From an uncultured Planctomycetia bacterium (GTDB lineage: Bacteria > Omnitrophota > Gorgyraeia > Duberdicusellales > 4484-171): DNA of 61,849 nucleotides. The notes below the pieces were generated by a model, which was not told the DNA's origin, did not search any database, and worked only from the letters and a program-made list of their open reading frames with translations. A program made the translations under genes and the position numbers. This document shows, in pieces, positions 9,495 through 61,699 of this stretch; within the stretch, counting starts at the first letter, position 1; each line of letters begins with the position of its first letter. The stretch covers positions 1 to 61,849 of the forward strand of contig CAZSDJ010000003.1 of NCBI GenBank assembly GCA_964605645.1, in the 5' to 3' direction.

Positions 9495-10288
9495 CCCCTG
9501 AAACTAGGGACACATCCCATTTTAGCTTCCCCTGAAACTAGGAACATATCCCATTTTTAGTTATATGTTTCCTTGGGCGCCCTGGTGCCCTTGTACTTAT
9601 TGTTATATCATATTTTTCTTTTATATGAGCGATAAATTTTTTACTTCCAAAGGGTTTACCTGTAAAAACTGATCGGTTTATGTTTTTTATTTCATTCTCA
9701 TTATCTGACATACATAAAAACTTTATATATTCTTGTCTTTCTTTATCACTAGAGCAAATCGGTTTAAGCAAGCCTCCTGTTGTTTTTTTCGTGTTAATTT
9801 TGGCACTGGACCATTTATAGTTTAAGGGGCCACTGCTTATTTTTGCTCTGACAGGGTTTCTTTCTATATATCTGCATACAGTCCAAAAATAAGAATCCCT
9901 ATCTACAACTGTAGAATGAAATCGACACTCCCAGAGCCTTCCTGTTCTGTGATATTTTTTATTCACGTATTGCGTATAACACAAGCTTAACTTTTGCATC
10001 AACTTAGCCAAAGAATCATTATGGTTTGGCTCAACCAGCATATGAATATGATTATTCATCAGGCAATATGTTCTTACGCTACAACTACATTCGTTACTGT
10101 ATTTTTTTATTAAATTAAGATAGAAAAAGCGGTCTTTATCTTCAAAGAAAATTATTTGCCTATTATTGCCTCTTTGAACTATGTGGTGGGGATATCCTAC
10201 TACTATAATTCTGGGTATTCTTGGCATGAGCGTAATATATCACAACAGAGCATAATGTTCAAGAAAAATGGGATGTGTCCCTGGTTTT
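9495..10288 (-). mobile_element. RAYT-like unit 1: inverted repeat, promoter, Y1 gene, two tandem inverted repeats
   Basis: CCCCTGAAACTAGGGACACATCCCATTTT at 9495-9524 and a 34-bp-offset second copy at 9529-9558. The inverted partner AAAAATGGGATGTGTCCCTGGTTTT is at 10264-10288. Confidence 0.6.
9538..10227 (-). CDS. REP-associated tyrosine transposase-like protein (IS200/Y1_Tnp superfamily)
   Basis: 229 aa. YPHHIVQRGNNRQ, HUH motif NHIHMLV, and tyrosine helix YIERNPVRA. Confidence 0.8.
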   Translation of the reverse strand: MPRIPRIIVVGYPHHIVQRGNNRQIIFFEDKDRFFYLNLIKKYSNECSCSVRTYCLMNNHIHMLVEPNHNDSLAKLMQKLSLCYTQYVNKKYHRTGRLWECRFHSTVVDRDSYFWTVCRYIERNPVRAKISSGPLNYKWSSAKINTKKTTGGLLKPICSSDKERQEYIKFLCMSDNENEIKNINRSVFTGKPFGSKKFIAHIKEKYDITISTRAPGRPRKHITKNGICS

Positions 10289-10508
10289 AAAAAATCAAAT
10301 AACTTAATAGAATGATAATTATTAGAAAAACCGCCCAATAAAACCACTTTGATTTTTTATTTAAATCTACCGGCCTGCCACAATAGTAACAACTGACAGC
10401 ATCTTGAGGGATAGGTTTTTTACAATGAGAGCATTCAACTAAATGATCATAATCTAAATCATCCTTTGGTTCATCTACTTGTTTGAAATCAAAAAAATCT
10501 TCGGACAT
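10287..10508 (-). CDS. small zinc-ribbon membrane protein
   Basis: 73 aa. CSHCKK..(9)..CYYCG zinc ribbon followed by one hydrophobic helix WFYWAVFLIIIILLSYLIF. Confidence 0.45.
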   Translation of the reverse strand: MSEDFFDFKQVDEPKDDLDYDHLVECSHCKKPIPQDAVSCYYCGRPVDLNKKSKWFYWAVFLIIIILLSYLIF

Positions 10509-10532
10509 TTTGCTTGAGAATGAATACTGAAC

Positions 10533-11045
10533 TCACTTTAAATTTTTAAAAATTCCATCATAGTTATCAGTTTCTCCCACCTTATAAAAAACAAGTTGAG
10601 CGATGCGTGCATTTTGTTTTATGTTAACACCCTCGGGATTCTCTACTGACAGGCTAAATTCACCTCTGCCGGAAAATCCGGCGTCCCAAACACCGTGAGA
10701 GGTAAAACAACCCATCCGCAAGATTGAGGTACGGCTAAAAGCAAGAGCTATCAAGTTATTCGGTAAGTTAACTGCTTCATTGGTTTTTACCTTATAAATA
10801 CCGGCTGATAAATTCCACCAACCGTATTTATCTTCTTGCTTTTTTTTCTCCGGAATAATTTCTCTTGTTTCCGGGACTACTCTTTCTTTGTTCGAAAAAT
10901 CCAATGAGCCTGCTTTATTAAATTTTGATATTTTAGCTACCGTTAAATCAATTCCATTTGGAGTTAATTGCTTATCTAGGCTTATATAACCTTCTAATAA
11001 CTTTTCATCTTCAATTAATTTTTTAATTTCTTTTTTGTTTAACAT
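10533..11045 (-). CDS. dCTP deaminase/dUTPase family protein (archaeal-type dut/dcd)
   Basis: 170 aa. NGIDLTV, FSRTSILRMG, VWDAGFSGRGEFSL and IAQLVF match the trimeric dUTPase-like fold motifs. Confidence 0.7.
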   Translation of the reverse strand: MLNKKEIKKLIEDEKLLEGYISLDKQLTPNGIDLTVAKISKFNKAGSLDFSNKERVVPETREIIPEKKKQEDKYGWWNLSAGIYKVKTNEAVNLPNNLIALAFSRTSILRMGCFTSHGVWDAGFSGRGEFSLSVENPEGVNIKQNARIAQLVFYKVGETDNYDGIFKNLK

Positions 11046-11478
11046 ATTTTTTCACCTCACTTATCGCTTCTTGAGCAGTTTTTACTTTTATCACTCCCTT
11101 TATGTCCCAACTATTAATACCAATTACTTTTTTATTTCCCGATAAGGCAAATCCTATTTCGGAAAGAGTACCATATTTACCATCAACTGCTATGAGATAG
11201 TCTGCCGCCCTTACCACTAAAGTATTTCGAACATATCCTAAGCCGGTTGGTATTTTTACATCTAGATAATTATTTGCTTCTTTGCCAGCGTAAGAAGGCA
11301 GAATGCCCACAGTCAAACCGTTTTCTTTTTTTGCTCCGCGGCAAGCCGCTTCCATAACACCGGGCCCGCCGCCGCAAATTAAAACCCAGCTTTCTTTGGC
11401 AATCAGTTCTCCTAACTTTTTAGCTATTTTGTAATTTTTATTCGAACAACTTGACCCGCCAATAACTGCAATATTCAT
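11023..11478 (-). CDS. TIGR00725/LOG-like (SLOG) family protein
   Basis: 151 aa. IAVIGGS, CGGGPGVMEAACRGA and GKYGTLSEI are typical of the LOG/lysine-decarboxylase-like Rossmannoid family. Overlaps the dut/dcd-like gene by 23 nt. Confidence 0.65.
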   Translation of the reverse strand: MNIAVIGGSSCSNKNYKIAKKLGELIAKESWVLICGGGPGVMEAACRGAKKENGLTVGILPSYAGKEANNYLDVKIPTGLGYVRNTLVVRAADYLIAVDGKYGTLSEIGFALSGNKKVIGINSWDIKGVIKVKTAQEAISEVKKYVKQKRN

Positions 11479-11503
11479 GATTATAAATTCGTATATGGGT
11501 ATA

Positions 11504-17373: not shown

Positions 17374-17402
17374 AATAAAAACAACGTCCCCAGCCGGATT
17401 TG
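17374..17402. repeat. 29-nt duplicate of the tRNA-Glu 3-prime end plus its 11-nt trailer
   Basis: AATAAAAACAACGTCCCCAGCCGGATTTG is identical at 17374-17402 and 17530-17558. The second copy is part of the intact tRNA gene. Confidence 0.85.
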
Positions 17403-17540
17403 TATGCGCTTTTTGCCGAAGGCAAATTATTCTTTAATATGCTATTATAAAAATATTTAGCGCATCCAAATAAGACATTGATTGACGCTTTAAGCTTGTA
17501 TTTTATTTACAAATAGCATTTTTGAAATAAATAAAAACAA

Positions 17541-17615
17541 CGTCCCCAGCCGGATTTGAACCGGCGCCGCAGGCTCGAAAAGCCCGTGTCCTAGGCCAGA
17601 CTAGACGATGGGGAC
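17541..17615 (-). tRNA. tRNA-Glu (anticodon UUC)
   Basis: Hand-folded. Acceptor GTCCCCA/TGGGGAC, anticodon arm CGGGC-TTTTCGA-GCCTG, T arm GCCGG-TTCAAAT-CCGGC. Confidence 0.85.
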
Positions 17616-23955: not shown

Positions 23956-25290
23956 TCATAAGTTTTTAATTTCCTGTGTAAGGCTGTTAATTACTATTTT
24001 TAATTTTTCGTCTTTCTCTAACATTTTTTTTATTTTTTTACAAGCATATAAAATATTAGTGTGATGTTTGCCTCCAAAATACCCCCCAATTTCCGGCAAA
24101 GAACTTTCCGTTAATTCCCGGGTTAAATACATCGCTACCTGCCGCGGCAGAACCAAGGTTTTGCTTCTCTTACTTTTCTTTAAATCTTCTTTTTCAACAC
24201 CATAAAAATCACTAACTTTTGCTAAAATAATTTCCGGGGTAACCCGGGCACTTATTTCGCGAACCATATCTTTTAAAATCCCTCTTGCTAAGTCAACAGT
24301 TATGGTTTTATTTTCAATTAAAGAATAAGCAATGATCCGCACTAAAGCCCCTTCGAGTTCGCGAATATTAGATGAAATATTTTCAGCAATAAAACGAACA
24401 ACTTGGGGTTCTACCTGGACCGCTTCGTTTTCCAGTTTCTTTTCTAAAATTGCAACCCGTGTTTCATAGTCCGGAGTTTGGATATCCACTACCAGCCCCC
24501 AATTAAAACGAGACACTAACCGCTCTTCTAAATCCGGGATTTCTTTCGGCGGCCGGTCTGATGAAACAACGATTTGTTTATGATGGTCGTACAATACATT
24601 AAAGGTATGGAAAAATTCTTCTTGGGAAGCCTCTTTACCCGAAAGAAACTGGATATCATCAATAAGCAGCATATCTATATCCCGGTATTTTTTCCGAAAC
24701 TTATCAGTATTGCGCTGCCGAATTGAAAGAATAAGGTCGTTAGCAAAGCTTTCGGAAGAAAGATATTTTACTTTAGTTTGCGGATCTAAAGAAAGAAGCT
24801 GATTGGAAATAGCTTGCATTAAGTGAGTCTTGCCTAACCCAACCCCACCATAAATAAAAATAGGGTTATATGATTTACCCGGCGCTTTTGCTACAGCTAA
24901 AGAGGCCGCGTGAGCCATCCGGTTTGAAGAACCGACCACAAAATTATCAAATGTAAAACGGGGATTTAAACGCAGTGATGTCTGTGGTTTGTCGCCAAAA
25001 CTTTTGTTGAAAGAACGAAAAATCTTTGTAGTTTTACTTTTCAGTAAGTTGGGATTAACCTTAAAATCAACACTGACTGGTTTCCCGGAAACTTCTTGAG
25101 AGATTTCTTGGATAGAAGACAAGTAATTGCTTTCCACCCAACTTTTAAAGAAACTATCCGGAGCTTCTAAAACAATATTGTCTTTAGTAAATTCTTTTAG
25201 CTGTAAAGGAGAAATCCAAGTATCAAAGGAAGTTTCTCCCAGGCGGGTTTTTAGTTTTTGTTTGCAAGTTTCCCAAATATCTTGTTTCAT
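23956..25290 (-). CDS. dnaA: chromosomal replication initiator DnaA
   Basis: 444 aa. Walker A [10 protein letters not shown], box VII, and the domain IV [37 protein letters not shown]. Confidence 0.95.
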   Translation of the reverse strand: [444 protein letters not shown]

Positions 25291-25756: not shown

Positions 25757-27202
25757 ATGGAAAAAAGATCAATTTTTGCTTTCTTGTTGCTAATCGGGTT
25801 CTTTGTAATCTGGTCTCAGTTTGCTCCAAAACAAGATACACAACCAGTTGATAGTCAAGAAGTTAGCCGCGAAACAATAAATGAAGCGCCAAAACGAGAA
25901 AAGCCGGGGACCGCAGAGCCGATTGACAAATTGTTGCCTGCAGAGGGAGCTCAGTTACAAGAAGTAAAAATAAACAATTATTACATCACTTATTCTAGCC
26001 GGGGCGGCTATCTTCATTCAGTTGCAGCGGGGAAGCCTACTAAAATATTACCTTTTCGCGATATCGGTTTTCAACCTGCTAATCAAAATCGAGAATATCA
26101 AGCGGAGATTAGTGACAATAGCCTTACCTTTGTTAAAGGGGATTCCGGGAAGAAGTTTGTGTTTGATGGTGATATCCTCGAAATTAGAAATGTACCAAAC
26201 TCCCCCATTCTGGCGTTTTCTTTTTCTTTAAATTCCGGAACTACTCAAATAAGTAAAAGATATTTTGAAGTTTTTTATCAGGAACAAGATTCTATCCAAC
26301 GGGCTCATCCTCAAAAAATTAAAGAAGAGAGATATCCCCAAACTAAATTTGCCGGGGCAAGAAGCCGTTATTACGCGTTTAGTTTATTGCCGGGCCGTTA
26401 TGACGTTGAATGGACTAAAAATAAAGAAAAAACAAACCTCTATTTAAACAATCCTCCCTCTACCGTTTCTTTTTATCTCGGCCCCCAGATTACTGACAAA
26501 ATGGATCTTTATGATTTAGGCGGGATAGTTTATTATGGCTTTTGGCACTTTTTGGCAATCGGGATTATCAAAGTCCTCTACTTTTTTTATAGTTTTCTTC
26601 ATAATTGGGGCTTAAGCGTTACATTTCTTTCCTTTTCCACCTATGCAGTATTATTTCCGTTTAGTTCAAAAAGCACCAAAGCCATGAAAAAAATGCAGGA
26701 AATCCAACCTTTAATGCAGGAATTAAAAGAAAAACACAAAGATAATCCGCAAAAAATGCAAAAAGAAACTGTAAAGCTTTACAAAGAACACAAAGTAAAT
26801 CCTTTGGGAGGCTGCTTGCCGCTTCTCTTTCAGTTTCCAATAATTATTGCCTTTTATCAGGTGGTTTTTCGATTTAGCCGCCTCGAAGGGGCTTCTTTCC
26901 TTTGGATTAAAGATTTATCGATGCCGGATCGGCTTTTTCAGCTCCCCTTCACAATCCCGGTTATTAATGTTCAATATTTTAATCTTCTTCCCATATTAGT
27001 AATGCTTTTAGGGATCATTCAGCAACACTTAACTGCATCATCTTCCAATCCTCAGCAAAAAAAGATTGGATTATTTATGGGGGTTTTTATCGGGATAATT
27101 TTCTACAAATTCCCCTCCGCATTAGTTCTCTACTGGTTTATCCAGAATTTACTCACTCTTCTATACCAGGTACGCCTAAAGAAAGCCCGCACCACCGCGT
27201 AA
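25757..27202 (+). CDS. yidC: membrane protein insertase YidC
   Basis: 481 aa. N-terminal TM, periplasmic domain, and conserved C-terminal core (NPLGGCLPLLFQFPI). Confidence 0.9.
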   Translation: MEKRSIFAFLLLIGFFVIWSQFAPKQDTQPVDSQEVSRETINEAPKREKPGTAEPIDKLLPAEGAQLQEVKINNYYITYSSRGGYLHSVAAGKPTKILPFRDIGFQPANQNREYQAEISDNSLTFVKGDSGKKFVFDGDILEIRNVPNSPILAFSFSLNSGTTQISKRYFEVFYQEQDSIQRAHPQKIKEERYPQTKFAGARSRYYAFSLLPGRYDVEWTKNKEKTNLYLNNPPSTVSFYLGPQITDKMDLYDLGGIVYYGFWHFLAIGIIKVLYFFYSFLHNWGLSVTFLSFSTYAVLFPFSSKSTKAMKKMQEIQPLMQELKEKHKDNPQKMQKETVKLYKEHKVNPLGGCLPLLFQFPIIIAFYQVVFRFSRLEGASFLWIKDLSMPDRLFQLPFTIPVINVQYFNLLPILVMLLGIIQQHLTASSSNPQQKKIGLFMGVFIGIIFYKFPSALVLYWFIQNLLTLLYQVRLKKARTTA

Positions 27203-27248: not shown

Positions 27249-27266
27249 CGTTTTCACGTGAAAACG
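27249..27266. promoter_or_regulatory. parS-like perfect 18-bp palindrome CGTTTTCACGTGAAAACG
   Basis: The central 12 nt, TTTCACGTGAAA, equal the canonical parS core (TGTTTCACGTGAAACA). Lies 184 bp upstream of parA. Confidence 0.6.
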
Positions 27267-27288
27267 GTTTGCTGGTTTAAAAGAGGAC

Positions 27289-27306
27289 CGTTTTCACGTG
27301 AAAACG
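27289..27306. promoter_or_regulatory. second parS-like perfect 18-bp palindrome CGTTTTCACGTGAAAACG
   Basis: Identical to the first copy, 40 bp centre to centre. Confidence 0.6.
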
Positions 27307-31329: not shown

Positions 31330-31335
31330 TGCACA

Positions 31336-31355
31336 AAAGGGGTCACACCTATTTT
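31336..31355. repeat. solo copy of the GGTCACACCT repeat that flanks RAYT unit 2
   Basis: AAAAGGGGTCACACCTATTTT, compared with 32346-32364 and the inverted copy at 33064-33079. Confidence 0.6.
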
Positions 31356-31367
31356 TTACATATATTT

Positions 31368-31737: not shown

Positions 31738-31810
31738 GTAAAAATATTTCAAAAAGTTGGTTGACAACTAAATAGCTTAGGATACAATTATTATCCTTTC
31801 TAAAAAAATC

Positions 31811-31971
31811 GGGGTCGTCGATTTCCCGCCCAGAGTTAAGCTGATGGCGGGATCCCGCCCATGTGTTTAGTTGCTAGGCGGGAAGTCTGGCTTCCCCGCT
31901 CCTGATGGCAGGAGATGAAAGAGCGGGGCCCCGCCCGAGTGTTTAGGCTGCTATGCGGGGAAGTCCCCTGC
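31811..31971 (+). repeat. tRNA-Asp 5-prime-half pseudo-copy split into three pieces by GC-rich hairpin repeats
   Basis: GGGGTCGTCGATT (31811-31823), AGTCTGGCTT (31884-31893) and AAGTCCCCTGC (31961-31971) reproduce nt 1-45 of the tRNA-Asp at 32227 in order. They are separated by hairpins of the form CCCGCCC-N17-GGCGGG. Confidence 0.7.
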
Positions 31972-32169
31972 GGGGGGGGTTACGTTCTAGAAAACACTGT
32001 AACTAAGTTGCATTATGTTGGCTGCACGCACAATCTTGATGCAAGAATAAAAGAACATAATGTTAAGCGCAAGCGAAAATGGTTAGGCCGGCAAAGTGGG
32101 AAATGGGTGTTAGCCTACAAAGATCCTTTTTTGAAAAAGCAGGATGCTTTAGCTTGTGAAAAAAAATAA
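31915..32169 (+). CDS. small GIY-YIG nuclease family protein (possibly frameshifted at an A8 run)
   Basis: 84 aa. YVLENTVTKLHYVGCTHNLDARIKEHN matches the GIY..YIG..R..EHN core. The expected C-terminal helix (IKRKKSRKYIEHLIENY) is in the -1 frame after A8 at 32159-32166. Confidence 0.65.
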   Translation: MKERGPARVFRLLCGEVPCGGGYVLENTVTKLHYVGCTHNLDARIKEHNVKRKRKWLGRQSGKWVLAYKDPFLKKQDALACEKK

Positions 32170-32305: not shown

Positions 32306-32370
32306 ATATTTCGTCCTTTGATTTTGACGTAATCACGTGAAGTAGAAAAGGGTCACACCTGTTTAATTTA

Positions 32371-32399
32371 TTGACAGATGCATTACCCAAGCATATAAT
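32371..32399 (+). promoter_or_regulatory. sigma70-type promoter of RAYT unit 2
   Basis: TTGACA (32371-32376), 17-nt spacer, TATAAT (32394-32399), 7 nt before the ATG at 32407. Confidence 0.55.
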
Positions 32400-32406
32400 A
32401 TTGAAC

Positions 32407-33069
32407 ATGTCTCGCCAGATTCGTTACATTGTCCCCAAAATCCCTCATCACGCTCTCCAGCGAGGCAATAATCGTCAGGTAATATTTTTTGATGAAAAAA
32501 ACAAAAAGTATTTCTGCGATAATCTTAAAAAATACAGCAGAGAACAAAAAGTCTCTATCGGCGCCTATTGCCTCATGACTAACCACCTGCATTTACTCAT
32601 ATACCCGGATACAGAGAAAGGTTTAATCAATTTTATGAAAGCTATCAGTCAAACTTATACTCAGTATATTAACCGGAAATATAAAAGAAGCGGTAAGTTG
32701 TGGGAGAATAGGTATAAGTTGCACTTGGTTGACCCTGATTATGAGCGGGTAGTATCCCGCTATATCGAATTAAATCCAGTCAGGGCTAATATGGTAAATA
32801 ATCCTTGCGATTATCAGTATTCAAGCGCGAGAAAAAACCTTAAAAATATATCAGATTGCATAGTAAACATAAATATAATTAAAGGAAAACATAAAGATTA
32901 TCAGGATTTCATAAAAGAAAAGATCCAAGAAAAGGAATTAAAGAAAATACGCGAGGCCTTACAACAAAACAAAGCCTTCGGCACAGAAAAGTTTATCAAA
33001 GGATTAGAGAAAAGATTCAATAAAACTTTTAAAGTAAGAAAAAGAGGCAGGCCTATAAGTGAAAAATAG
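32407..33069 (+). CDS. REP-associated tyrosine transposase-like protein (Y1_Tnp superfamily)
   Basis: Start moved to MSRQIRY, because the track start is the TTG of the -35 box. IPHHALQRGNNRQ, HUH NHLHLLI, YIELNPVRA. Confidence 0.8.
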   Translation: MSRQIRYIVPKIPHHALQRGNNRQVIFFDEKNKKYFCDNLKKYSREQKVSIGAYCLMTNHLHLLIYPDTEKGLINFMKAISQTYTQYINRKYKRSGKLWENRYKLHLVDPDYERVVSRYIELNPVRANMVNNPCDYQYSSARKNLKNISDCIVNINIIKGKHKDYQDFIKEKIQEKELKKIREALQQNKAFGTEKFIKGLEKRFNKTFKVRKRGRPISEK

Positions 33070-33071
33070 GT

Positions 33072-33224
33072 GTGACCACTTTTGCTCTTTTGCTCACTCT
33101 CTACCGGTTAATTAAACAAGGCAAACTTCCTAATTTTAAAGTTGGCGGCCAGTGGCGGGTTAAAAAAGAGCTGCTTGATTCGTGGATCAGAAAAAAGCCG
33201 GAAGAAAATAAAAAAGAGGAGTAA
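33072..33224 (+). pseudogene. truncated excisionase-type (HTH_17-like) DNA-binding gene fragment
   Basis: My translation is ...LYRLIKQGKLPNFKVGGQWRVKKELLDSWIRKKPEENKKEE, which matches the recognition helix and wing of excisionase-family HTH proteins. The first helix is missing and the fragment starts inside the right repeat of RAYT unit 2. Confidence 0.45.
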
Positions 33225-33240
33225 TAAAAAGAGAGAAGTT

Positions 33241-33747
33241 ATGGAGCAGAAAAGCAGGCATAATTGGTATGCTTTATATACAAAGTCCCGCCATGAGAAG
33301 TTTGTTGAGGCAGAACTTCTCAAAAAAGGCATAGCGGCCTTTACTCCCAAAGTAACTTACCGCCGGAGATGGTCAGACCGGATAAAATATATCAAAGAGC
33401 CTTTATTTAAAAGCTATTGTTTTGCCAAATTCCCCTTAAAAGATAAACCTAAAGTTGTTTCCCAGGCCGGGGTGGTTACGGTGGTCCATTTTAGAAGCCA
33501 GTATATTCCTATCTCTGAGAAAACCATTGATTCTTTAAAGATTATTACCACTACTAATTACCAAGCAAATCCCTGTCCTTACCTAAAGACAGGTGATTAT
33601 GTATATATAAAGAAAGGCCCCCTAAAAGGGGTAGAAGGGTTTATTTTAGAAAAGAGAAACAAAAACACAAGCGTTGTTATCTCAGTTGATGCTTTGGCAT
33701 CAGCGGTTAGTTGTGTTGTAGGGATAGATTGCGTCGAGCTCTCGTAG
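33241..33747 (+). CDS. UpxY-like NusG-family transcription antiterminator
   Basis: Start at MEQKSRHNWYALYTKSRHEK (NGN domain). KOW motif GDYVYIKKGPLKGVEGFILEK. Sits upstream of a polysaccharide locus. Confidence 0.75.
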   Translation: MEQKSRHNWYALYTKSRHEKFVEAELLKKGIAAFTPKVTYRRRWSDRIKYIKEPLFKSYCFAKFPLKDKPKVVSQAGVVTVVHFRSQYIPISEKTIDSLKIITTTNYQANPCPYLKTGDYVYIKKGPLKGVEGFILEKRNKNTSVVISVDALASAVSCVVGIDCVELS

Positions 33748-34047
33748 TTAGTTCTTAGCTCATTGCTTTTAATTTATAGCCTTGTTTCGACAGATGATGG
33801 ATGATCGCTTCGCTAAGACGACAGACGAAAAATATTTCATCCCTGCCTGCCGCCTGCCTATCGGCAGACAGGGCAGGCAGGCTTTCGTCCCTCGTTCGTC
33901 GGTATCTTCTTTAGCCACAAGCCAATCTGGGAGTGAGGCGGCGGAGCTGTAGCTGGAGGAGTTGTGAACGGGGTCTAAGGGGTCAGGTCTTTACACTTGA
34001 CATAATCTTGTTTATCCGCTAAAGTGTTAATAAACAAAGAGGTAAAT

Positions 34048-35004
34048 GTGGCCAGGCCATTACGAATTGAATATCAAGATGCATTTTATCATATAATCCA
34101 GCGCGGATTCGAAAAAAGAAATATTTTAAAAAAAAATCAAAATAAAACAAAGTTTCTTCAATACCTGTCTCAGAGTTACCAAAAATACCAATCAATCTGC
34201 CATAGCTATTGTTTGATGGATAATCACTACCATTTGATTATCCAAACCCCCAAAGCAAACCTTACCAAAGTAATGCATTATGTAAATGCTAGCTATGCAA
34301 TCTACTACAACAAAAGAAATAAAAGAACCGGCCCTTTATATCAAGGCAGGTATAAATCTATACTAATTGAAGCTGACCAATACTTAGATCATCTAAGCCG
34401 GTATATCCACTTAAACCCCGTACGGGCAAAAATTGTTAAAAATCCCCAAGATTATCCTTGGTCCAGTTATCAATATTTTCTTAGGAAGAAAGCGCCGGAA
34501 AAATGGCTGGAACCCCTTTTTATATTATCTAACTTTGGCAAAAAAGCCAAAGAAGCTAGCAGTGCTTACCGGGATTTTGTGCTGGAAGGCAGAGGTAGGG
34601 AAAAGGAAATACAAAGCTACATAAAAGAAAATACCCATCACGGTTTAATTTTAGGAAGCAATAACTTTTCTCAAAACATATACGATAAATATATAAAAAG
34701 AAAAAAAGATACAGAAATACCAGTAACCAGATGTTTCCAAAAAGACAACGGCCTGACTAAAGAAAGGGTAGAGAGTATTGTTAGGAACATAGTAAAAGAT
34801 GAGGCAAAAATAAGAAAGTTTACAATATACACACTAAAGCGATATACCCAAAAAACCCTCAAAGAAATTTCAGCTAGTTACAAAGGGATTGGGTATACCG
34901 GGGTCAGTATATTATGCAAGCGGCTGGAAGAAAAAAGAAAGAAAGATAAAAATACCGGCCGGGCGATTGCCAAGATAGAAAGTATGTGTAATGTGAAGAC
35001 CTGA
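34048..35004 (+). CDS. Y1/HUH transposase-like protein with C-terminal DnaA-domain-IV-like HTH
   Basis: GTG start chosen by alignment to MARPLRIEY of the 41544 paralog. FYHIIQRG, HUH NHYHLII, YIHLNPVRA. C-terminal tail YTQKTLKEISASYKGIGYTGVSILCKRLEE. Confidence 0.75.
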   Translation: MARPLRIEYQDAFYHIIQRGFEKRNILKKNQNKTKFLQYLSQSYQKYQSICHSYCLMDNHYHLIIQTPKANLTKVMHYVNASYAIYYNKRNKRTGPLYQGRYKSILIEADQYLDHLSRYIHLNPVRAKIVKNPQDYPWSSYQYFLRKKAPEKWLEPLFILSNFGKKAKEASSAYRDFVLEGRGREKEIQSYIKENTHHGLILGSNNFSQNIYDKYIKRKKDTEIPVTRCFQKDNGLTKERVESIVRNIVKDEAKIRKFTIYTLKRYTQKTLKEISASYKGIGYTGVSILCKRLEEKRKKDKNTGRAIAKIESMCNVKT

Positions 35005-35133
35005 CCCCCATAGGTGGCTTCATTATGCAAGCGGCTGGAAGAAAAAAGAAAGAAAGATAAAAATACCGGCCGGGCGATTGCCAAGATAGAAAGTATGTGT
35101 AATGTGAAGACCTGACCCCCATAGGTGGCTTCA
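34912..35133. repeat. perfect 111-bp tandem duplication (x2) covering the 3-prime end of the Y1 gene plus its right inverted repeat
   Basis: Unit 34912-35022 reads identically by eye to 35023-35133. Confidence 0.85.
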
Positions 35134-35282
35134 AATACTCCAGTGCCAAAAAACACCTTAAAAATACAAAAGACGATATAGTAAATATAGATATAATTAA
35201 AGGAAAACAAAAAGGCTATCAGGATTTCATAAATGAAAAGATAGCAGAAAAAGCCGGTAAAGATAAAATAGGTGTAGACCAC
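35134..35282 (+). pseudogene. C-terminal remnant of a unit-2-type RAYT gene with its right repeat
   Basis: Translates to YSSAKKHLKNTKDDIVNIDIIKGKQKGYQDFINEKIAEK, parallel to YSSARKNLKNISDCIVNINIIKGKHKDYQDFIKEKIQEK of 32407-33069. Ends in AAAATAGGTGTAGACCAC. Confidence 0.7.
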
Positions 35283-35363
35283 GCCGGGTTTGACGGAAAA
35301 AACTTGTATAATTCGAAAAACAGTGTATACTTACTGCAATAGACATTTAACATTTAGCGCTAT

Positions 35364-35957
35364 ATGGAGCGAAAACTTAAACCAATATATGTTCAGCAGT
35401 TTCTACTGGAAAAAGGTGTGCGGCTTTTTTCACCGTCTGACTTCCGGCGTATCTTCGCCGTATCCTTACGGGCGGCCCAAGAATTCATCAAGGACCACAG
35501 CCAGGACCTTTTCTTGAAAATAAGAAACGGTCTTTATGCTCTGCGTGCCGAGTTGCCCCAAGAAGAAGCCATAGCTAATCGGCTATATGCGCCAAGCTAC
35601 ATCTCTTTTGAGTATGCCCTGACTCGATACGGCATTATACCCGAATCCGTCTATGCCGTAACATCGGCGACAACCCGAATAACCCGTGAATTTACAGTCA
35701 ATAATAAATCTTTTACTTATTCTCACATCAAAAAACAGGCTTTTCAGGGCTATAAAACAGAGAAAAAAAACGGTACTACTCTCCTTATTGCCGAACCGGA
35801 AAAGGCCTTCGTAGATTATCTTTATTTTGTAGATCTGAAACGTAAACCCTTGAACGAGCGCCTCGATACCCGCAGAATAAAGAAAAAAACCGTCACGGAA
35901 TATATCAAGTTTTTTGGCAGGAAAAGTTTAACAAGGCTGGTTAAAGAAATTTTATGA
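35364..35957 (+). CDS. AbiEi-family type IV antitoxin / transcriptional regulator
   Basis: 197 aa. SYISFEYALTRYGIIPE and IAEPEKAFVDYLYF resemble AbiEi. 4-nt ATGA overlap with the downstream nucleotidyltransferase. Confidence 0.65.
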   Translation: MERKLKPIYVQQFLLEKGVRLFSPSDFRRIFAVSLRAAQEFIKDHSQDLFLKIRNGLYALRAELPQEEAIANRLYAPSYISFEYALTRYGIIPESVYAVTSATTRITREFTVNNKSFTYSHIKKQAFQGYKTEKKNGTTLLIAEPEKAFVDYLYFVDLKRKPLNERLDTRRIKKKTVTEYIKFFGRKSLTRLVKEIL

Positions 35958-36694
35958 TTGGAAAAAGGCAAATTCAGAAACTAGCCGGGCTTTGGCAGAC
36001 AACTCTTGATAACGTTGTGCGGGAGTATTTTCAGCAATTATTTCTTTCATGGCTTTATCAGGGAAAGGGATCCGATAAACTACTTTTTAAGGGAGGGACA
36101 GCCCTGCGGGTTATCTGGCAGAATCCGCGGTTTTCGGAGGATTTGGACTTTACCGGAGTGACTGTGTCAGTAAAAAAGATTGAAACATTGATGGAAGAGA
36201 CGCTTGCCAAAATGGAGATGGAGGGCATTCAGACCGAAATCGTTGAGTCGAAAAGCACTCCCGGCGGTTATCTTGCTATATTTCAGTTTAAAACCAACGA
36301 ATATAACAGCCGGATTCAGATCGAGGTATCTCTGCGAAACGGCAAAAAAGAAGGAGGGACAGCAGTTCTTATTCGGTCCGAGCTTGTTATGCCATATACA
36401 CTCGTTCATCTCAAAGAAGAGGTTCTTGTTTCCGAAAAAATACAGGCCTGTCTTACGCGCGGTAAGGCACGGGATTTTTACGATCTTTATTTTATTCTCC
36501 GAAGCCGTATGGCATTCAAAGACATATTTCTTAGAGATAAGCAATTAAAATCAAAAATCATTAAAGTCATTAAGGCAGGGAAATTGGATTTTAGGCGTGA
36601 GCTTAAGATGTTTCTTCCCGTCAGCCAACACATGGTTATCAAGGGTTTTCCAACGACACTTTTATCGGAAATTGAACGAAATGTGGCAGGATAA
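35954..36694 (+). CDS. AbiEii/DUF1814 nucleotidyltransferase toxin
   Basis: 246 aa. LLFKGGTALRVIW..RFSEDLDFT is the family signature. Confidence 0.75.
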   Translation: MIGKRQIQKLAGLWQTTLDNVVREYFQQLFLSWLYQGKGSDKLLFKGGTALRVIWQNPRFSEDLDFTGVTVSVKKIETLMEETLAKMEMEGIQTEIVESKSTPGGYLAIFQFKTNEYNSRIQIEVSLRNGKKEGGTAVLIRSELVMPYTLVHLKEEVLVSEKIQACLTRGKARDFYDLYFILRSRMAFKDIFLRDKQLKSKIIKVIKAGKLDFRRELKMFLPVSQHMVIKGFPTTLLSEIERNVAG

Positions 36695-36873: not shown

Positions 36874-36913
36874 ATTAACATGGGAGTGAGGCGGCGGAGC
36901 TGTCCCCTGTTGT

Positions 36914-38390: not shown

Positions 38391-39090
38391 CAAAAAATTC
38401 TGTTAACCGGTGGAATGGAACAAGGAAAATGCGAATACAAATGCTCTGATTGCCAAGCGGTATTAGAACCTAAACCTACTCCAGAAAATAAACCGCTTGT
38501 CTCTACAAGTATTTATGCTCAAACTAAGAAAGACCAGGAAGAGATGGCTTTAATAATAGGAAAAACTTATGATATACCTACAGTAGCTTTGAGATACTTT
38601 AATGTGTACGGCCCCAGACAGAGTTTAAATAATCCCTATACTGGAGTTTGCGCAATTTTTAGTAGTAGGATAAAGAATAATAATCCTCCTCTTATCTTTG
38701 AAGATGGTAATCAGAGTAGAGATTTTGTACACGTTGAAGATATCGCAAGAGTCAATCAACTAGTGCTAGAAAAAGAAGAAGCTAACATGAAAGTTTTTAA
38801 TGTAGGAACAGGGGTGGCAAGGACTATAAAAGAAATCGCTGAATTACTAATAAACTTATATGACAAACAAGGCAAATTAGATTATAAAGTTGTAGAAAAG
38901 TTCAGAAAGGGAGACATAAGACACTGTTACTCTGATATTTCTCATCTTAAAAAGATTCTCAATTATGAACCAAAAAAAGCTTTAAACAGGGGATGAAGGA
39001 ACTGATAGACTGGGGCAAGGAACAAAACGCCATTGATAAATTTAAAAAAGCTTCAAGTGAGTTAGAAAAAAAAGTTAAAAGTGCAGAGTA
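38391..39090 (+). pseudogene. NAD-dependent sugar epimerase/dehydratase with internal deletion and 3-prime frameshift
   Basis: In frame upstream of the track ORF, QKILLTGG (the start of the Rossmann motif) joins directly to the mid-protein segment CEYKCSDC...YAQTK (catalytic YxxxK region). The usual C-terminal GMKELIDW... continues in the +1 frame after 38990 and ends in a RAYT right-end fragment. Confidence 0.7.
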
Positions 39091-39156
39091 GAGACCTGAT
39101 TCCTGATACTAGAGCGGAAATATCTTATAAAGAAAGAGAAGAAAGAATTTAAGCAA

Positions 39157-40116: not shown

Positions 40117-40152
40117 TCAAAGACCGGGTATTTTGAAGAATAGCAGAAACTA

Positions 40153-40237
40153 AGAAAAAAGATAAGAAGCTTGATAAGCTTTTAGCGAAATTAGAAAAAA
40201 AAGTTAAAAGTGCAGAGTGGAGACCTGACCCCTAAGG
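40153..40237 (+). repeat. 85-bp orphan copy of the 3-prime end and right repeat of RAYT unit 4
   Basis: Near-identical by eye to 42426-42510 (..GATAAGAAGCTTGATAAGCTTTTAGCGAAATTAGAAAAAAAAGTTAAAAGTGCAGAGTGGAGACCTGACCCCTAAGG). A shorter, more diverged copy is at 39062-39104. Confidence 0.8.
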
Positions 40238-40438: not shown

Positions 40439-41437
40439 ATGAGCCAGAAAAAAGCTCTAGTTTGCGGAGCAGGAGGTTTTATCGGAGGATTTTTGGTCAA
40501 GAGGTTAAAAAAAGAAGGATATTGGGTCCGGGGCGTTGACCTAAAGCGCCACGAATTTGAAGAATCAAAAGCCGATGATTTCATTATTGGTGACCTGCGC
40601 GGCCAGCAGGTTTGTAAGAAAATTACCCAAGATGTGCAATTTGATGAATTGTATCAGTTAGCCGCTGATATGGGAGGAGCCGGATTTGTTTTTACCGGAG
40701 ATAATGATGCAGCAATTTTACATAATTCAGCCTCAATTAACTTGAACATGTTAGAACAGGCAAAAGAAACCGGTATAAAGAAAGTATTCTATTCTTCTTC
40801 AGCCTGTATTTATCCGGAATACAATCAAATGGAACCTGATAATCCCGGTTTGCCGGAAGATTGCGCTTACCCGGCTAATCCGGATTCAGAATACGGCTGG
40901 GAGAAACTGTTCGGTGAGCGCCTATATTTGGCCTATAACCGGAATTACGGCAGGGAAGTCCATATTGCAAGGTACCACAATATCTTTGGCCCTTTGGGGA
41001 CTTGGCAGGGGGGCAGAGAGAAGGCTCCGGCTGCTTTCTGCCGCAAGATTGCCCAGGCTAAAGACGGTGCAGAGATTAAGATGTGGGGTGACGGCAAACA
41101 AACCCGTTCTTTTCTCTATATTGACGCCTGCATAGAAGCTACCTGGAGGTTGATGCACTCTGATTTTACCGGCCCGGTAAACATAGGCTCCGATGAAAAG
41201 GTCAGCATAAATGGCTTAGCTTATATGATTGCCGGTATTGCCGGTAAAAAAATCAGCATAAAACATATAGAAGGCCCTTTGGGGGTAAGAGGCAGAAGTT
41301 CAGACAACAAATTAATTAAAGAGAAGCTGGGCTGGGCTCCTGATTATCCTCTAAAGGAAGGCTTAGAAAAAACCTACCCCTGGATTGCCGAAAGCACAGA
41401 CAACAAACTGGATAAGGGGTCAGGTCTCCACTCTTGA
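40439..41437 (+). CDS. NAD-dependent epimerase/dehydratase (GDP-mannose 3,5-epimerase-like)
   Basis: 332 aa. GAGGFIGGFLVKRL and SSACIYP..YGWEK. The last ~9 codons (DKGSGLHS) are encoded by the left repeat of RAYT unit 4. Confidence 0.75.
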   Translation: MSQKKALVCGAGGFIGGFLVKRLKKEGYWVRGVDLKRHEFEESKADDFIIGDLRGQQVCKKITQDVQFDELYQLAADMGGAGFVFTGDNDAAILHNSASINLNMLEQAKETGIKKVFYSSSACIYPEYNQMEPDNPGLPEDCAYPANPDSEYGWEKLFGERLYLAYNRNYGREVHIARYHNIFGPLGTWQGGREKAPAAFCRKIAQAKDGAEIKMWGDGKQTRSFLYIDACIEATWRLMHSDFTGPVNIGSDEKVSINGLAYMIAGIAGKKISIKHIEGPLGVRGRSSDNKLIKEKLGWAPDYPLKEGLEKTYPWIAESTDNKLDKGSGLHS

Positions 41438-42537
41438 CAAATATTATCCCCATGATATTATTGTTTTATGGCTCGTCCGTTAAGTGGATAAGGGGTCAGG
41501 TCTCCACTCTTGACAAATATTATCCCCATGATATTATTGTTTTATGGCTCGTCCGTTAAGAATAGAATATGAAAATGCTTTCTACCATGTAATCCAAAGG
41601 GGAACAGAAAGAAAAAATATCTTCTTACAAGATGCAGATAAAGATAGGTTTCTTTCTTATCTAGGCCAGGCATATCTTGGATATAAAGCGTTTATTCATA
41701 GCTATGTGATGATGGATAATCATTATCATTTAATTTTACAAACTCCCAAGGCTAATCTCAGTAAAATAATGCATTATCTTAATACCAGTTATGCCATATA
41801 CTTCAATAGCAAAAGAAAACGGGTAGGCCCTTTATATCAAGGCAGATATAAGGCCATACTAATCCAACAAGATGAGTATCTACATCATCTTTCCCGCTAT
41901 ATTCATCTGAATCCGGTTAGAGTAAAAAAAGTAAGGGATCCTATAAAATACCCCTGGAGTAGCTATAAATATTTTGTTTCAAAAGCATCACCGCCTCTTT
42001 GGCTGCAAACAGCATTTATTCTTTCTATGTTTGGTAAAACAGTTGTAAAGGCTAAAAAGCTTTATAAAGAATTCGTTTTGGGCGCAATCGGCAAGGAAAA
42101 AGATATCATTTCAAAAAACACAATAAAAGGATTTATTCTCGGCAACAGTGACTTTGCTGATAAGATAATAAAGAAATTTGTTATGAGCAAACAAGATCCA
42201 GAAATTCCCACTATAGATAAACTAAAGCGGGAAAAACAACTTCCTTTGGAGAAAATTAAAACACTTGTAGAAAAAAATACAGCAGATAACAGGAGGCTGA
42301 AAAGGAGAATTATCTTCTACCTGGCCCGTAAATATACCCAACAAACCTTAAAAGATATAGCTGTTTTTTGTGGTAAAATAAAAGATACAGGAGTAAGTCA
42401 GGCATTTCGAAGAGTAGAAGAGGCCAGAAAAAAAGATAAAAAGCTTGATAAGCTTTTAGCGAAACTAGAAAAAAAAGTTAAAAGTGCAGAGTGGAGACCT
42501 GACCCCTAAAGGCAGAGTGGAGACCTGACCCCTAAAG
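41409..42537 (+). mobile_element. RAYT-like unit 4 (DnaA_C-like subclass) with duplicated left and right ends
   Basis: A 76-bp tandem duplication (41409-41484, 41485-41560) contains GGGGTCAGGTCTCCACTCT, TTGACA, a -10 element and the first 6 codons. The right end GCAGAGTGGAGACCTGACCCCTAAAG is duplicated at 42486-42511 and 42512-42537. Confidence 0.65.
41544..42509 (+). CDS. Y1/HUH transposase-like protein with C-terminal DnaA-domain-IV-like HTH
   Basis: 321 aa. MARPLRIEYENAFYHVIQRG, HUH NHYHLIL, YIHLNPVRV. C-terminal tail YTQQTLKDIAVFCGKIKDTGVSQAFRRVEE. Confidence 0.78.
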   Translation: MARPLRIEYENAFYHVIQRGTERKNIFLQDADKDRFLSYLGQAYLGYKAFIHSYVMMDNHYHLILQTPKANLSKIMHYLNTSYAIYFNSKRKRVGPLYQGRYKAILIQQDEYLHHLSRYIHLNPVRVKKVRDPIKYPWSSYKYFVSKASPPLWLQTAFILSMFGKTVVKAKKLYKEFVLGAIGKEKDIISKNTIKGFILGNSDFADKIIKKFVMSKQDPEIPTIDKLKREKQLPLEKIKTLVEKNTADNRRLKRRIIFYLARKYTQQTLKDIAVFCGKIKDTGVSQAFRRVEEARKKDKKLDKLLAKLEKKVKSAEWRPDP

Positions 42538-52833: not shown

Positions 52834-52835
52834 AC

Positions 52836-52976
52836 GAGGGGACGTTTCCCTCTGTTATAAGCCTTTGGGGGCCAAGGTGTTATAAAGTGGTGATTTCCAG
52901 ATAGTTGGTTTACCGGAAAACACCTGTTTGTAACTTATTGATAATGAGTGTGTTATAAACGAGGGAAATGTCCCCT
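52836..52976. repeat. ~140-bp element with terminal inverted repeats, copy 2 (inverted relative to copy 1)
   Basis: GAGGGGACGTTTCCCTC ... GAGGGAAATGTCCCCT. Its reverse complement aligns along the full length with 6116-6253. Confidence 0.7.
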
Positions 52977-52993
52977 TTGATGATTATATGTAA

Positions 52994-59902: not shown

Positions 59903-60002
59903 CGTTATGAAAACGGCAGTCATTGACTGAAGTATCAAGTTAAGCAAGAATTAAATAACATTTTTCAGCAGGTATTCTTAAAAACAAAAAGTACTATGCG
60001 GT

Positions 60003-60935
60003 ATGAATAAAAGACCGGTATTTATTGTCGGCCTTTCACGTTCGGGCACCACCCTGTTGGCTAATATACTAAACAGGCATCCAAGGATAGCAATATATCC
60101 AGAAACCCACTTTTTCTCCTCTGTTTGGGCCTGCCGCAAAACCCCTTTTTTAAAGAGGGAAAAAGATGTTGATGAGGCGATAGGGAGAGTCGGAAATTTA
60201 AAAAACACAGGCATACGGGCCGAAGATATAAAGGCCAGGTTTTTTAATACAGACAAGAGCCTTTTGCGCCTGTTCGATATAGTTTTAGCCCTGTATAGGG
60301 AAAAACAAGGAAAGGCCAGGCCGGGCGAAAAAACACCCGGCCACTTCCTTTACCTGCCGTTACTACTCAAGCTGTATCCGGATGCGAAGGTACTATGCAT
60401 ATACCGCGACCCCAGAAATACCTATAGCTCGTTTAAACACAGGCCCGAATTTAAGAAATTAAGCCCCATTGATAGGTGTTTAATCGGAAGGTCTTTGTTA
60501 TGGAACCTCTGCCTTAGGCGGGTATCGGAATACAGGCGAAAAGAACATGCCGGCTGGTTCAAGGCTGTAAAATTCGAAGAGCTTATTACAAGGCCGCAGG
60601 AAGTTGCAAAATCAATCTGTGGATTCTTAAATGAACCCTACTGCCAACGGATGCTTTATGTAAAACATACAAATAGTAGTTTTACCGCTTCGCAAAAATT
60701 CGGTATGAGCAAAAAACCGCTTGACAGGACCGGGCATTTAGCCAGAATGGAGATATTTTTCATTGAACTTATCTGCGGAGGGTATATGCTGGAGGAGTAT
60801 AATTCTTTTTTAGTGGTTTCTGTGTCGCTGTTGCGGTTTTTTAAAAAAATGAAACTTTATCTATTATTGGAAGGAATTCATATATCCTGGCGGAAAATAA
60901 GGATGTTGTGGGGATTGCTGCGGGAAAAATTATAA
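60003..60935 (+). CDS. sulfotransferase family protein
   Basis: 310 aa. PAPS loop FIVGLSRSGTTLLANIL and IYRDPRNTYSS. Confidence 0.72.
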   Translation: MNKRPVFIVGLSRSGTTLLANILNRHPRIAIYPETHFFSSVWACRKTPFLKREKDVDEAIGRVGNLKNTGIRAEDIKARFFNTDKSLLRLFDIVLALYREKQGKARPGEKTPGHFLYLPLLLKLYPDAKVLCIYRDPRNTYSSFKHRPEFKKLSPIDRCLIGRSLLWNLCLRRVSEYRRKEHAGWFKAVKFEELITRPQEVAKSICGFLNEPYCQRMLYVKHTNSSFTASQKFGMSKKPLDRTGHLARMEIFFIELICGGYMLEEYNSFLVVSVSLLRFFKKMKLYLLLEGIHISWRKIRMLWGLLREKL

Positions 60936-60942
60936 GAGGGGT

Positions 60943-61699
60943 AAAAGGGGACAGCGCCCTTTTATATTGCATAAATATCCAACTTTTGTTATTATGTTTC
61001 TATGCCGCGTAGAGCACGAATAGCAGCAATCGATTATCCCCATCACATTACCCAGAGAGGCAATTTCCAGCAGAATATTTTCAAGAATGATATAGATAGA
61101 AAAAACTACCTCGCCTGGATAGGGGAGTATAGCTATAAATACGGCCTCACCATGCTATGTTATTGTTTAATGCCGAATCATGTGCACTTTATTGCGATTC
61201 CTCATAAAGAAGATTCGCTTGCCAGAACCTTCAATACGGCACACATGCGTTATTCTCAGTATATGAATAAAAAAATGCAAAGAAATGGCCATCTTTGGCA
61301 GGGACGATTTTTTTCATGCGTATTAGATGAAACACACTTAACGATGGCTGCTCGTTATGTCGAACGGAATCCTGTACGGGCAAAATTAGTGAATAAGCCG
61401 TGCCAATGGCAATGGTCAAGCGCTCGGGAACATACAAACAAGAGAAAACCGTTAATTCCCCTCGGAGGCCTTTTTAGTTTTATCGAAATAAACTCTGCTG
61501 AATGGGAAGAGTATATTGAAACCAAGGAAGAAAGCGAAACTATAAATACTATAAAAAAACACACGTTTGTTGGAAGACCTTTAGGAAATGATCATTTTAT
61601 AGAAAAGTTAAGCAAAAAAATAGGACGAAAGATACCTATGCTTACGAGGGGTAGGCCCAAGAATAAGACGAATAAATAAAAAGGGCGCTGTCCCCTTTT
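60943..61699 (+). mobile_element. RAYT-like unit 5: inverted repeat, promoter, Y1 gene, inverted repeat
   Basis: AAAAGGGGACAGCGCCCTTTT (60943-60964) and the inverted AAAAGGGCGCTGTCCCCTTTT (61678-61699). TTGCAT-17-TATTAT lies before the ATG. Confidence 0.6.
61002..61679 (+). CDS. REP-associated tyrosine transposase-like protein (Y1_Tnp superfamily)
   Basis: 225 aa. YPHHITQRGNFQQ, HUH NHVHFIA, YVERNPVRA. Confidence 0.8.
   Translation: MPRRARIAAIDYPHHITQRGNFQQNIFKNDIDRKNYLAWIGEYSYKYGLTMLCYCLMPNHVHFIAIPHKEDSLARTFNTAHMRYSQYMNKKMQRNGHLWQGRFFSCVLDETHLTMAARYVERNPVRAKLVNKPCQWQWSSAREHTNKRKPLIPLGGLFSFIEINSAEWEEYIETKEESETINTIKKHTFVGRPLGNDHFIEKLSKKIGRKIPMLTRGRPKNKTNK

Follow-up and report, generated by a model that had tools for sequence, protein, structure and literature searches.

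Five divergent Y1 gene units bounded by terminal inverted repeats, probably TIRtrons, around the replication origin of an Omnitrophota genome

Genes resembling those of the REP-associated tyrosine transposases (RAYTs) are not always accompanied by the repetitive extragenic palindromes (REPs) after which that family is named. Di Nocera, De Gregorio & Rocco (2013, BMC Genomics 14:522, PMC3733652) described RAYT-like genes that lie between long terminal inverted repeats (TIRs) and not between REPs, and named the unit a TIRtron and its protein a TIRYT. According to the sections of that paper on which we draw, most of the described TIRs carry GGGGWSAS at their outer end, the right TIR may overlap the end of the open reading frame (ORF; the "3'ov" arrangement), several TIRYT genes with different TIRs can occur in one genome (three in K. 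versatilis, two in S. maltophilia), and some TIRs belong to families of moderate abundance that occur as singles, dimers or clusters. Quentin, Siguier, Chandler & Fichant (2018, PMC6006769) placed the TIRtron class in TnpA_REP subclass 2.1, which equals RAYT group 1 of Bertels, Gallie & Rainey (2017, PMC5581495). Subclass 2.1 comprises long proteins with a conserved C-terminal extension and no REP; the helix-turn-helix (HTH) families named for the extension are Bac_DnaA_C, HTH_23 or HTH_28, with a Bac_DnaA_C/HTH-like domain in 2.1.2, and the signature motifs are NHVH or NH[YF]H, W[EQ] or FQ, and YIELNP or Y[IV]HLNP, with SS after the Tyr helix (PMC6006769). The same source gives a mean of 1.9 copies per genome at 49% identity for subclass 2.1, and an intragenomic identity of 99% for IS200. 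Here we analyse a complete contig of 61,849 nt (CAZSDJ010000003.1, hereafter the window; ~37% G+C) from a Candidatus Omnitrophota metagenome-assembled genome (MAG), the nearest relatives of whose proteins are likewise found in Candidatus Omnitrophota MAGs, and conclude that it probably contains five TIRtrons, each encoding a TIRYT of TnpA_REP subclass 2.1 between a cognate pair of TIRs with an outer GGGGWSAS.

An initial annotation of the window had proposed five RAYT-like Y1/HUH ORFs with common motifs. All five are present where it had placed them, are named U1 to U5 here, and gave a match in a Pfam search with Y1_Tnp (45.9-59.2 bits, cutoff 23; E 7e-12 to 6e-16). The N-terminal HH..QRG, the N-H-x-H motif and the tyrosine helix R-Y-I/V-x-x-N-P-V-R are common to the five proteins, the invariant residues being, in U1 numbering, H15, Q18-R19-G20, N59-H60-x-H62 and R119-Y120...N124-P125-V126-R127, and the HUH and Tyr motifs are intact in every case. 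Amino acid identity to U1 is 29-41%, and U3 and U4 are 51% identical to each other. Short forms (U1, 229 aa; U2, 220 aa; U5, 225 aa) can be told from long forms (U3, 318 aa; U4, 321 aa), and the motif combinations are NHIH/WE/YIERNP in U1, NHLH/WE/YIELNP in U2, NHYH/YQ/YIHLNP in both U3 and U4, and NHVH/WQ/YVERNP in U5, with an SS motif in all five (WSS, but YSS in U2). The best model for each protein is NCBIfam REP_Tyr_transpos (64-77 bits), and the IS200 model gives 18-27 bits (cutoff 55). Protein clusters (90% identity) matching the short forms alone number over 7,900. A scan of a viral contig collection returned no long-form homologue.

The AlphaFold2 model of U4 (pLDDT 87) has E. coli TnpA_REP (PDB 4ER8; E 3.7e-6, TM 0.75) as its top structural match, followed by the TnpA proteins of IS608 and ISDra2. 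The C-terminus of the same model resembles the DnaA DNA-binding domain 3pvp (TM 0.78), and a profile of 30 long-form homologues compared with DnaA structures matched DnaA domain IV (E 1.4e-5). On the strength of profile and model, U3 and U4 are predicted to possess a C-terminal HTH of the DnaA-domain-IV kind. In place of the HTH, the short forms have a basic, disordered RGRP tail at their C-terminus; the model of U5 (pLDDT 90) consists of a single domain, a helical extension and a disordered tail with a family-invariant G-R-P, and Pfam recovered no HTH family, and nothing meaningful, on the tails of U1, U2 and U5.

Each gene had also been described as part of a unit of repeat, promoter, gene and repeat, and this layout is confirmed. 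Inverted repeats with cores of 10-22 nt stand at both ends of all five genes, the observed match count being reached in none of 100 shuffles, and a sigma-70-like promoter lies just inside the left repeat of every unit, with the repeat abutting the -35 box. U1 (9489..10281, minus strand) has the repeat GGGACACATCCCATTTT as its left TIR (10265-10281) and as a perfect outer right TIR (9507-9523), with a degenerate copy carrying two mismatches as the inner right TIR (9541-9557); its gene lies at 9538-10227 and its promoter reads TTGAAC-17-TATATT in the sequence (-35 box 10257-10262, -10 box 10234-10239). U2 (32346..33082, plus strand) has the repeat GGTCACACCT as left and right TIR cores (32351-32360 and 33068-33077), its gene at 32407-33069 and a promoter matching the consensus at 12 of 12 positions (TTGACA-17-TATAAT, 32371-32399). 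It sits directly 3' of a tRNA-Asp gene and adjoins, at its other end, an HTH_17 gene that lacks its 5' end (the first ~50 nt). U3 (33979..35133, plus strand) has the repeat GGGGTCAGGTCT at 33979, where the left TIR begins, at 34997 (right TIR 34997-35008) and again at 35108; its gene (34048-35004) begins with GTG preceded by a Shine-Dalgarno sequence, and its promoter (33997-34025) scores 10/12. In U4 (41409..42535, plus strand; gene 41544-42509) the 18-nt repeat GGGGTCAGGTCTCCACTC occurs twice on the left (41416-41433 and 41492-41509) and twice on the right (42489-42506 and 42515-42532), and the two left TIRs are accompanied by two promoters of the form TTGACA-16-TATTAT with a TG (11/12). U5 (60942..61700, plus strand; gene 61002-61679) is bounded by perfect 22-nt TIRs (60942-60963 and 61679-61700), its promoter reading TTGCAT-17-TATTAT (-35 box 60967-60972, -10 box 60990-60995). 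Only 6 nt separate the -10 hexamer from the ATG in U1, U2, U4 and U5, and this spacing suggests that the four mRNAs are leaderless.

The repeats had been called private to their genes. That each gene has its own pair is correct, but U3 and U4 have a 12-nt core in common and GGG(G)[AT]CA is found at all five ends. The outer ends of U3 and U4 (GGGGTCAG) and of U5 (GGGGACAG) match GGGGWSAS at 8 of 8 positions, and those of U1 (aGGGACAC) and U2 (aGGGTCAC) at 7 of 8; 12 of the 20 GGGGWSAS matches in the window fall in the non-coding 13% of its sequence. Lone U1 and U5 repeats form weak hairpins (-3.1 and -5.8 kcal/mol), that of U5 being a small GC hairpin followed by a T run. The GTAG tag on flanking repeats is absent from all five units, and no consistent target-site duplication was seen at any compared end. 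A candidate DnaA-box-like operator in the U4 promoter spacer (TTATCCCCA, matching TTATCCACA at 8 of 9 positions; TTATCCGC in U3) was rejected because neither of the close homologues, at loci L004 and L230, has the motif in its promoter.

The initial annotation was right in kind but overstated the novelty: the arrangement corresponds to the published TIRtron/TIRYT class, as far as the consulted sections of PMC3733652 define it, and hence to subclass 2.1 (PMC6006769). With the TIRtrons of those sections the units have in common a RAYT-like Y1/HUH gene between TIRs, a right TIR overlapping the 3' end of the ORF, GGGGWSAS, TIRs at a near-fixed distance from the gene, several TIRYT types per genome, and, for some of the types, the occurrence of singles, dimers and clusters. 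With subclass 2.1, whose membership we judged by published motif signatures, end motif and domain content, they have in common the signatures themselves, the SS motif, a C-terminal extension, the predicted DnaA_C-like HTH in the long forms, the lack of REP hairpins and the divergence of the paralogues. The differences are that the long forms here have YQ where the published table has FQ and that the short forms have no detectable HTH. The hosts described in the same sections of PMC3733652 do not include Omnitrophota, nor do those sections describe five types within 62 kb around an origin of replication (oriC), perfect end duplications of 76 and 112 nt, right-end-anchored partial copies, or a promoter 6 nt from the ATG. 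The class is therefore a known one, to which the window adds a phylum, a high local density, and natural derivatives with their comparators. That several distinct systems reside together in the window is upheld, and five in 62 kb are unusual, as had been supposed, in comparison both with the published mean of 1.9 per genome and with a single Y1 hit in 556 kb of related DNA (85 related loci); as that sample is centred on dcd and oriC neighbourhoods, the contrast in density is indicative and gives no genome-wide rate.

Several points weigh against this assignment or against parts of the picture built on it. The REP_Tyr_transpos scores are under that model's 80-bit cutoff, and Pfam Bac_DnaA_C reaches only 24.6 bits on U4 where the gathering score is 31.5. 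Single TIRs of U2 and U4 form no hairpin alone, unlike REP or IS608 ends, and U1, U3 and U5 have no dispersed copies in the window, only local tandem ones. One related protein, P0070, has a right TIR only, so a complete TIR pair is not universal. Both the leaderless mRNAs and the self-repression considered below are suggested by spacing alone. Finally, we found no experimental or biochemical work on any TIRYT in the literature searched, so that cleavage, strand choice and substrate are a matter of pure analogy.

The borders of the units can be read from related genomes. Homologues of U4 with the same GGGGTCAGGTCTCCAC end are 76% (L004), 73% (L230) and 62% (L001) identical to it, and those of U5, 68% and 63% identical, end in AAAAGGGGACAGCGCCCTTTT (L228) or ATAGGGACAGCGACC (L219); across species, each TIR sequence is conserved along with the protein to which it belongs. 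At the nucleotide level, the match of the window to these homologues starts at the first G of the left TIR and stops at the last base of the right TIR where this is adjacent. Thus L004 2947-3955 corresponds to window 41492-42506 at 77% with unrelated flanks, and the same is true of L230, L219 and L228. Since homology is confined between the TIRs, the TIR-bounded unit must have been relocated or transferred over evolutionary time. Additional right TIRs past a passenger gene are present in L004 and L228, and a tandem unit of 14 nt spans the right end in L004. In L228 (2398-3825; GCA_041643055.1) a perfect TIR hairpin dimer of 25 bp lies upstream of the promoter of the U5 homologue, and a third TIR copy lies past a 193-aa passenger ORF, so that here the TIR pair encloses two genes. 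L236 departs from L232 85 nt after the P0070 stop codon.

A comparison of related genomes for presence or absence of the units, which the initial annotation had proposed as a check, was informative for U1 and U2. U1 lies between dcd and the UPF0047 gene in the window, and the order dcd-UPF0047-fpg is found without a Y1 gene in at least 10 related contigs. U2 follows the conserved block of rpoZ and tRNA Cys-Leu-Val-Asp, after which no Y1 gene is present in L133 and L135. The closest relative, L131 (~77-80% nucleotide identity; GCA_021736105.1), has at the U2 site a different Y1 gene (6680-7520) on the opposite strand, 38% identical to U2 and flanked by GTAG-type REP hairpins (TTGCACTTCGTAGGTGCAAG); two kinds of RAYT-like element have therefore settled downstream of tRNA-Asp independently of each other. 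At the U1 site, L217 (reads ERR14790929; 92-95% nucleotide identity, collinear over 13.5 kb) retains U1, the 57 nt from left TIR to ATG being identical to those of the window by eye. The dN/dS of U1 against L217 is 0.23 (0.06-0.13 for neighbouring genes), and U1 is under purifying selection. L217 lacks the UPF0047 (YjbQ) gene and the outer TIR copy (window 9032-9534 against L217 10356-10362), and the gap spans exactly the interval from the U1 right TIR to the fpg start codon; it represents an adjacent deletion or an insertion starting at the TIR.

The window also contains duplicated ends, fragments and gene-less derivatives, most of which the initial annotation had missed. U1 is duplicated in tandem at its right end (a 35-nt unit, 9489-9523 and 9523-9557, copies 91% identical), and the duplication also takes in the ribosome-binding region of the downstream UPF0047 gene. 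U1 with its duplication was recovered in an independent Logan assembly (L216, reads SRR7048227) that matches the window at 100% identity for 4.1 kb. In U3 a perfect 112-nt tandem duplication (34911-35022 = 35022-35133) covers the 3' end and 14 nt of flank, which supplies the second TIR at 35108-35119. In U4 the left end has a perfect 76-nt tandem duplication (41409-41484 = 41485-41560) that covers the TIR, the promoter and 17 nt at the start of the ORF, and the right end a 26-nt tandem unit. Each of these tandem end units takes in 7-17 nt outside the TIR. Away from the units, a solo U2-type TIR of 31 nt (31334..31364), 90% complementary to 33054-33084, directly follows tRNA-Cys, and the remnant of a second U2-type gene (35135..35290, plus strand; the 3' ~40%, 54% identical in amino acids to U2 over residues 121-179), whose right TIR is degenerate (AGGTGTAGACC), starts immediately past the right end of U3. 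Two U4-type right-end fragments lie on the plus strand, one of 38 nt (39062..39099) and one of 106 nt (40130..40235) that matches the final 106 nt of U4 at 90.6% identity and has the TIR at its end. The shorter fragment follows a truncated epimerase gene (38415-38996) of which the C-terminal half only is present; an intact epimerase paralogue (40439-41437), 2 kb downstream, runs into the first left TIR of U4, its last codons therefore being repeat-encoded.

Two further elements of ~140 nt, the second inverted relative to the first (6112..6258, ends AAGGGGACGTTCCCCTCGTTTGTAAC, DNA fold z -6.3; 52834..52980, fold z -6.2), resemble dimers of TIRs of the miniature inverted-repeat transposable element (MITE) or REPIN kind. 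Both have the inverted ends AAGGGGACGTT(T/C)CCCTC, and the window holds no cognate Y1 gene for them; they resemble MITE/REPIN-type derivatives of a further, sixth type, its gene lying outside the window. TIR dimers taken as single-stranded DNA fold much better than shuffled sequences (z -6 to -11). A solo right-end-like motif ending in GGAGCTGTCCCC (36881..36909, plus strand) has the reverse complement GGGGACAGCTCC, which is related to the U5 core, and its first 23 nt are repeated at 33928-33950. The proposal that each gene owns a dispersed REP/REPIN population thus survives in part: within the window, the U2 and U4 types have solo copies beyond the units, and U1, U3 and U5 are limited to their local tandem copies.

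Beyond the window, an exact scan for the U4-type 16-mer GGGGTCAGGTCTCCAC in one genome per species returned at least 120 stretches, and 118 of 120 among the matches listed have no Y1 gene in the surrounding 8 kb. Several Thermoanaerobaculia MAGs each hold at least 12-15 such loci, for the most part with no Y1 gene close by and often in tandem arrays with a 27-nt period (GGGGTCAGGTCTCCACTTGCCACWTCG; for example L035 5075-5171 and L059 1423-1534), and in L034 an inverted pair of the 16-mer encloses a non-Y1 ORF. By our arithmetic ~280 matches to a 16-mer are expected by chance in 596 Gb, and some single hits in unrelated phyla will be of this kind. Hits in Omnitrophota, such as L045, retain the TIR together with TTGACA; the solo left TIR of L045 was considered as an orthologous U4 site and dismissed, the neighbouring genes being unrelated.

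The strongest alternative is that the units are active autonomous insertion sequences (ISs), a Y1 type with TIRs that spreads selfishly and has not been domesticated into single-copy genes. It would account well for units that are exactly TIR-bounded and stand in unrelated contexts in different genomes, for the lineage-specific insertions U1 and U2, the latter abutting the 5'-truncated HTH_17 gene, for the U2-type remnant beside U3, the partial copies and the five units in 62 kb, and for end duplications that are 100% identical and hence recent. Yet no two copies in the window are alike (29-51% amino acid identity), whereas active ISs are normally near-identical (99% for IS200). Identical proteins are, moreover, always found at one locus, in the same context, across 11 to at least 24 contigs from many samples (P0035 in 24 contigs, P0257 in 24 with 55 collection blocks, P0002 in 11), and U1 has been inherited vertically at its site with a dN/dS of 0.23. 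We therefore regard ongoing selfish spread as an improbable description of these units, if one that deserves to be kept in mind.

Considerably less probable is that they are classical REP/RAYT systems (REPtrons), in which GTAG-tagged REP hairpins would seed a large genome-wide REP/REPIN population. The protein fold is indeed closest to TnpA_REP and REP_Tyr_transpos is the best model, L131 has a RAYT flanked by GTAG REPs at the very site of U2, and the window holds MITE/REPIN-like dimers. Compared with E. coli yafM (the protein of 4ER8) and the Pseudomonas RAYTs, the units also resemble REPtrons in their hairpin-forming repeat doublets, in having a single-copy, vertically inherited gene between its own inverted repeats, and in the co-residence of several systems with their own repeat families. 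The repeats here, however, are not individually palindromic, GTAG-tagged REPs, those of U2 and U4 not folding alone, and occur in low copy number in the window, and the proteins are longer with extra C-terminal parts; furthermore, repeats with GGGGWSAS that act as TIRs of the whole gene are separated in the literature as TIRtrons/subclass 2.1 ("no REP").

That the units are ordinary IS200/IS605 insertion sequences can hardly be entertained and is refuted by the features tested. Like the TnpA proteins of IS608 and ISDra2, to which they are structurally similar, the five have Pfam Y1_Tnp hits, an HUH/Y1 fold and a presumed single-strand cleavage, with no target-site duplication seen; but the IS200 model scores far under its cutoff, the proteins have 220-321 aa against ~150 aa, the Y motif is YI(E/H)xNP and not Y...Q, the HUH motif is NHxH and not DH[VI]H, and there are inverted-repeat ends in place of two different subterminal left- and right-end hairpins, no tnpB and no identical multi-copy elements. 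Equally negligible is the notion that the flanking repeats are regulatory signals only (operator on the promoter side, terminator on the 3' side) unrelated to cleavage or mobility. In its favour, every left repeat directly adjoins the -35 box and the U5 repeat combines a GC hairpin with a T run; against it, solo copies, tandem arrays and gene-less dimers of these repeats are found both in the window and in other genomes, homology between genomes ends exactly at them, and those of U2 and U4 form no hairpin alone.

Returning to the TIRtron assignment, we can outline how such a unit might work by analogy with IS608 TnpA and TnpA_REP. A TIRYT would bind its own TIR, with the GGGGWSAS foot and the type-specific part setting the specificity. 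One strand may then be cut and rejoined via a 5'-phosphotyrosine when the DNA is single-stranded, for example at a replication fork, and a unit's two TIRs, or those of a short dimer, could pair on one strand into a stem, with the GGGG foot at its base, which would be the likely substrate. The whole unit would be moved rarely and TIR-only derivatives (solo ends, tandem ends, MITE-like dimers) more often, as proposed for REPINs. With the -35 box touching the left TIR, binding would also repress the gene, giving low expression and one quiet copy per type; such self-repression is what the spacing suggests.

The fragments in the window show a bias towards right ends, as each of the pieces of 26, 38, 106 and 112 nt, like the remnant of ~40% of a gene, has its end at a right TIR, and in a small sample one clear solo left end (L045) stands against recurrent right-end remnants. 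The duplications of TIR and flank (U1, U3, U4 and L004), the extra right TIRs and the rearrangements starting at a right TIR may point towards right-end-anchored events. It is conceivable, though we think it doubtful, that TIRtrons in this lineage are currently active and move or copy by a one-ended, right-end-anchored process, unlike the symmetric "peel and paste" of IS200/IS605; the bias could alternatively reflect slippage at stalled forks, or simple decay. If such a process were real, the window would hold natural intermediates of a transposition pathway for which we found no experiments.

The replication origin region lies inside the window, with dnaA at 23956-25290 (minus strand), yidC at 25757-27202 and parA and parB from 27378, and the GC skew changes sign at ~25 kb, with all credible window genes directed away from that point. 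All five units are co-oriented with the fork, but the same is true of every credible window gene, so orientation was discarded as a signal. As a weaker addition to the right-end-anchored process, the DnaA-like HTH may bias units towards the origin region. Targeting of oriC by this domain was considered and set aside, since no Y1 gene lies within ±10 kb of oriC in L133 and L135, and dnaA was not seen within ±3 kb of the homologues in L001 and L004. Near the origin region, between yidC and parA (27249-27306), lies an imperfect palindrome of 58 nt (83%).

TIRYT or subclass 2.1 proteins are among the commonest bacterial Y1 "transposase" annotations, and the contig offers a compact test set of five intact, divergent units with clean ends, promoters and natural derivatives. 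Comparators are at hand in the unit-free orthologous sites of U1 and U2 and in the same-site copy of U1 with a changed right flank in L217. The questions that this set can serve are what role the TIR plays, whether the DnaA-like HTH reads the TIR, and whether the units are domesticated like RAYTs or still mobile. For annotation, calls of "IS200-like transposase" in Omnitrophota MAGs do not denote IS200 elements.

Several minor features were noted in passing. A strong promoter-like site (TTGACA-16-TACAAT, 11/12) in the region 31761-31990 is followed by a stretch that opens like the 5' end of tRNA-Asp, reading cggggtcgtcgatt...agtctggctt...aagtcccctgc, and is broken by four GC-rich hairpins (TCCCGCC...GGCGGGA twice and CCCCGC...GCGGGG twice). 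An Rfam search recovered only tRNAs and gave no match for this stretch; the spacer from tRNA-Val to tRNA-Asp measures 490 nt in the window against 115 nt in L131. A perfect 29-nt direct repeat (17374-17402 and 17530-17558) overlaps the 3' end of tRNA-Glu, and the ~130 nt that lie between its copies in the window are missing from the 92-95% identical L217; it could be an att-like scar or a small duplication. Beyond U2, the remnant of the HTH_17 (excisionase-type) gene (33085-33230) precedes a NusG-like paralogue (33142-33747) that heads a ~28-kb cluster of glycosyltransferase, sulfotransferase and epimerase genes, and this HTH_17 and NusG head is intact in L131. Within the polysaccharide-synthesis cluster, between U3 and U4, lies an AbiEii-type nucleotidyltransferase toxin gene (35954-36694), overlapped upstream by a 197-aa ORF without a Pfam hit that is possibly its antitoxin (the pair spans 35364-36694).

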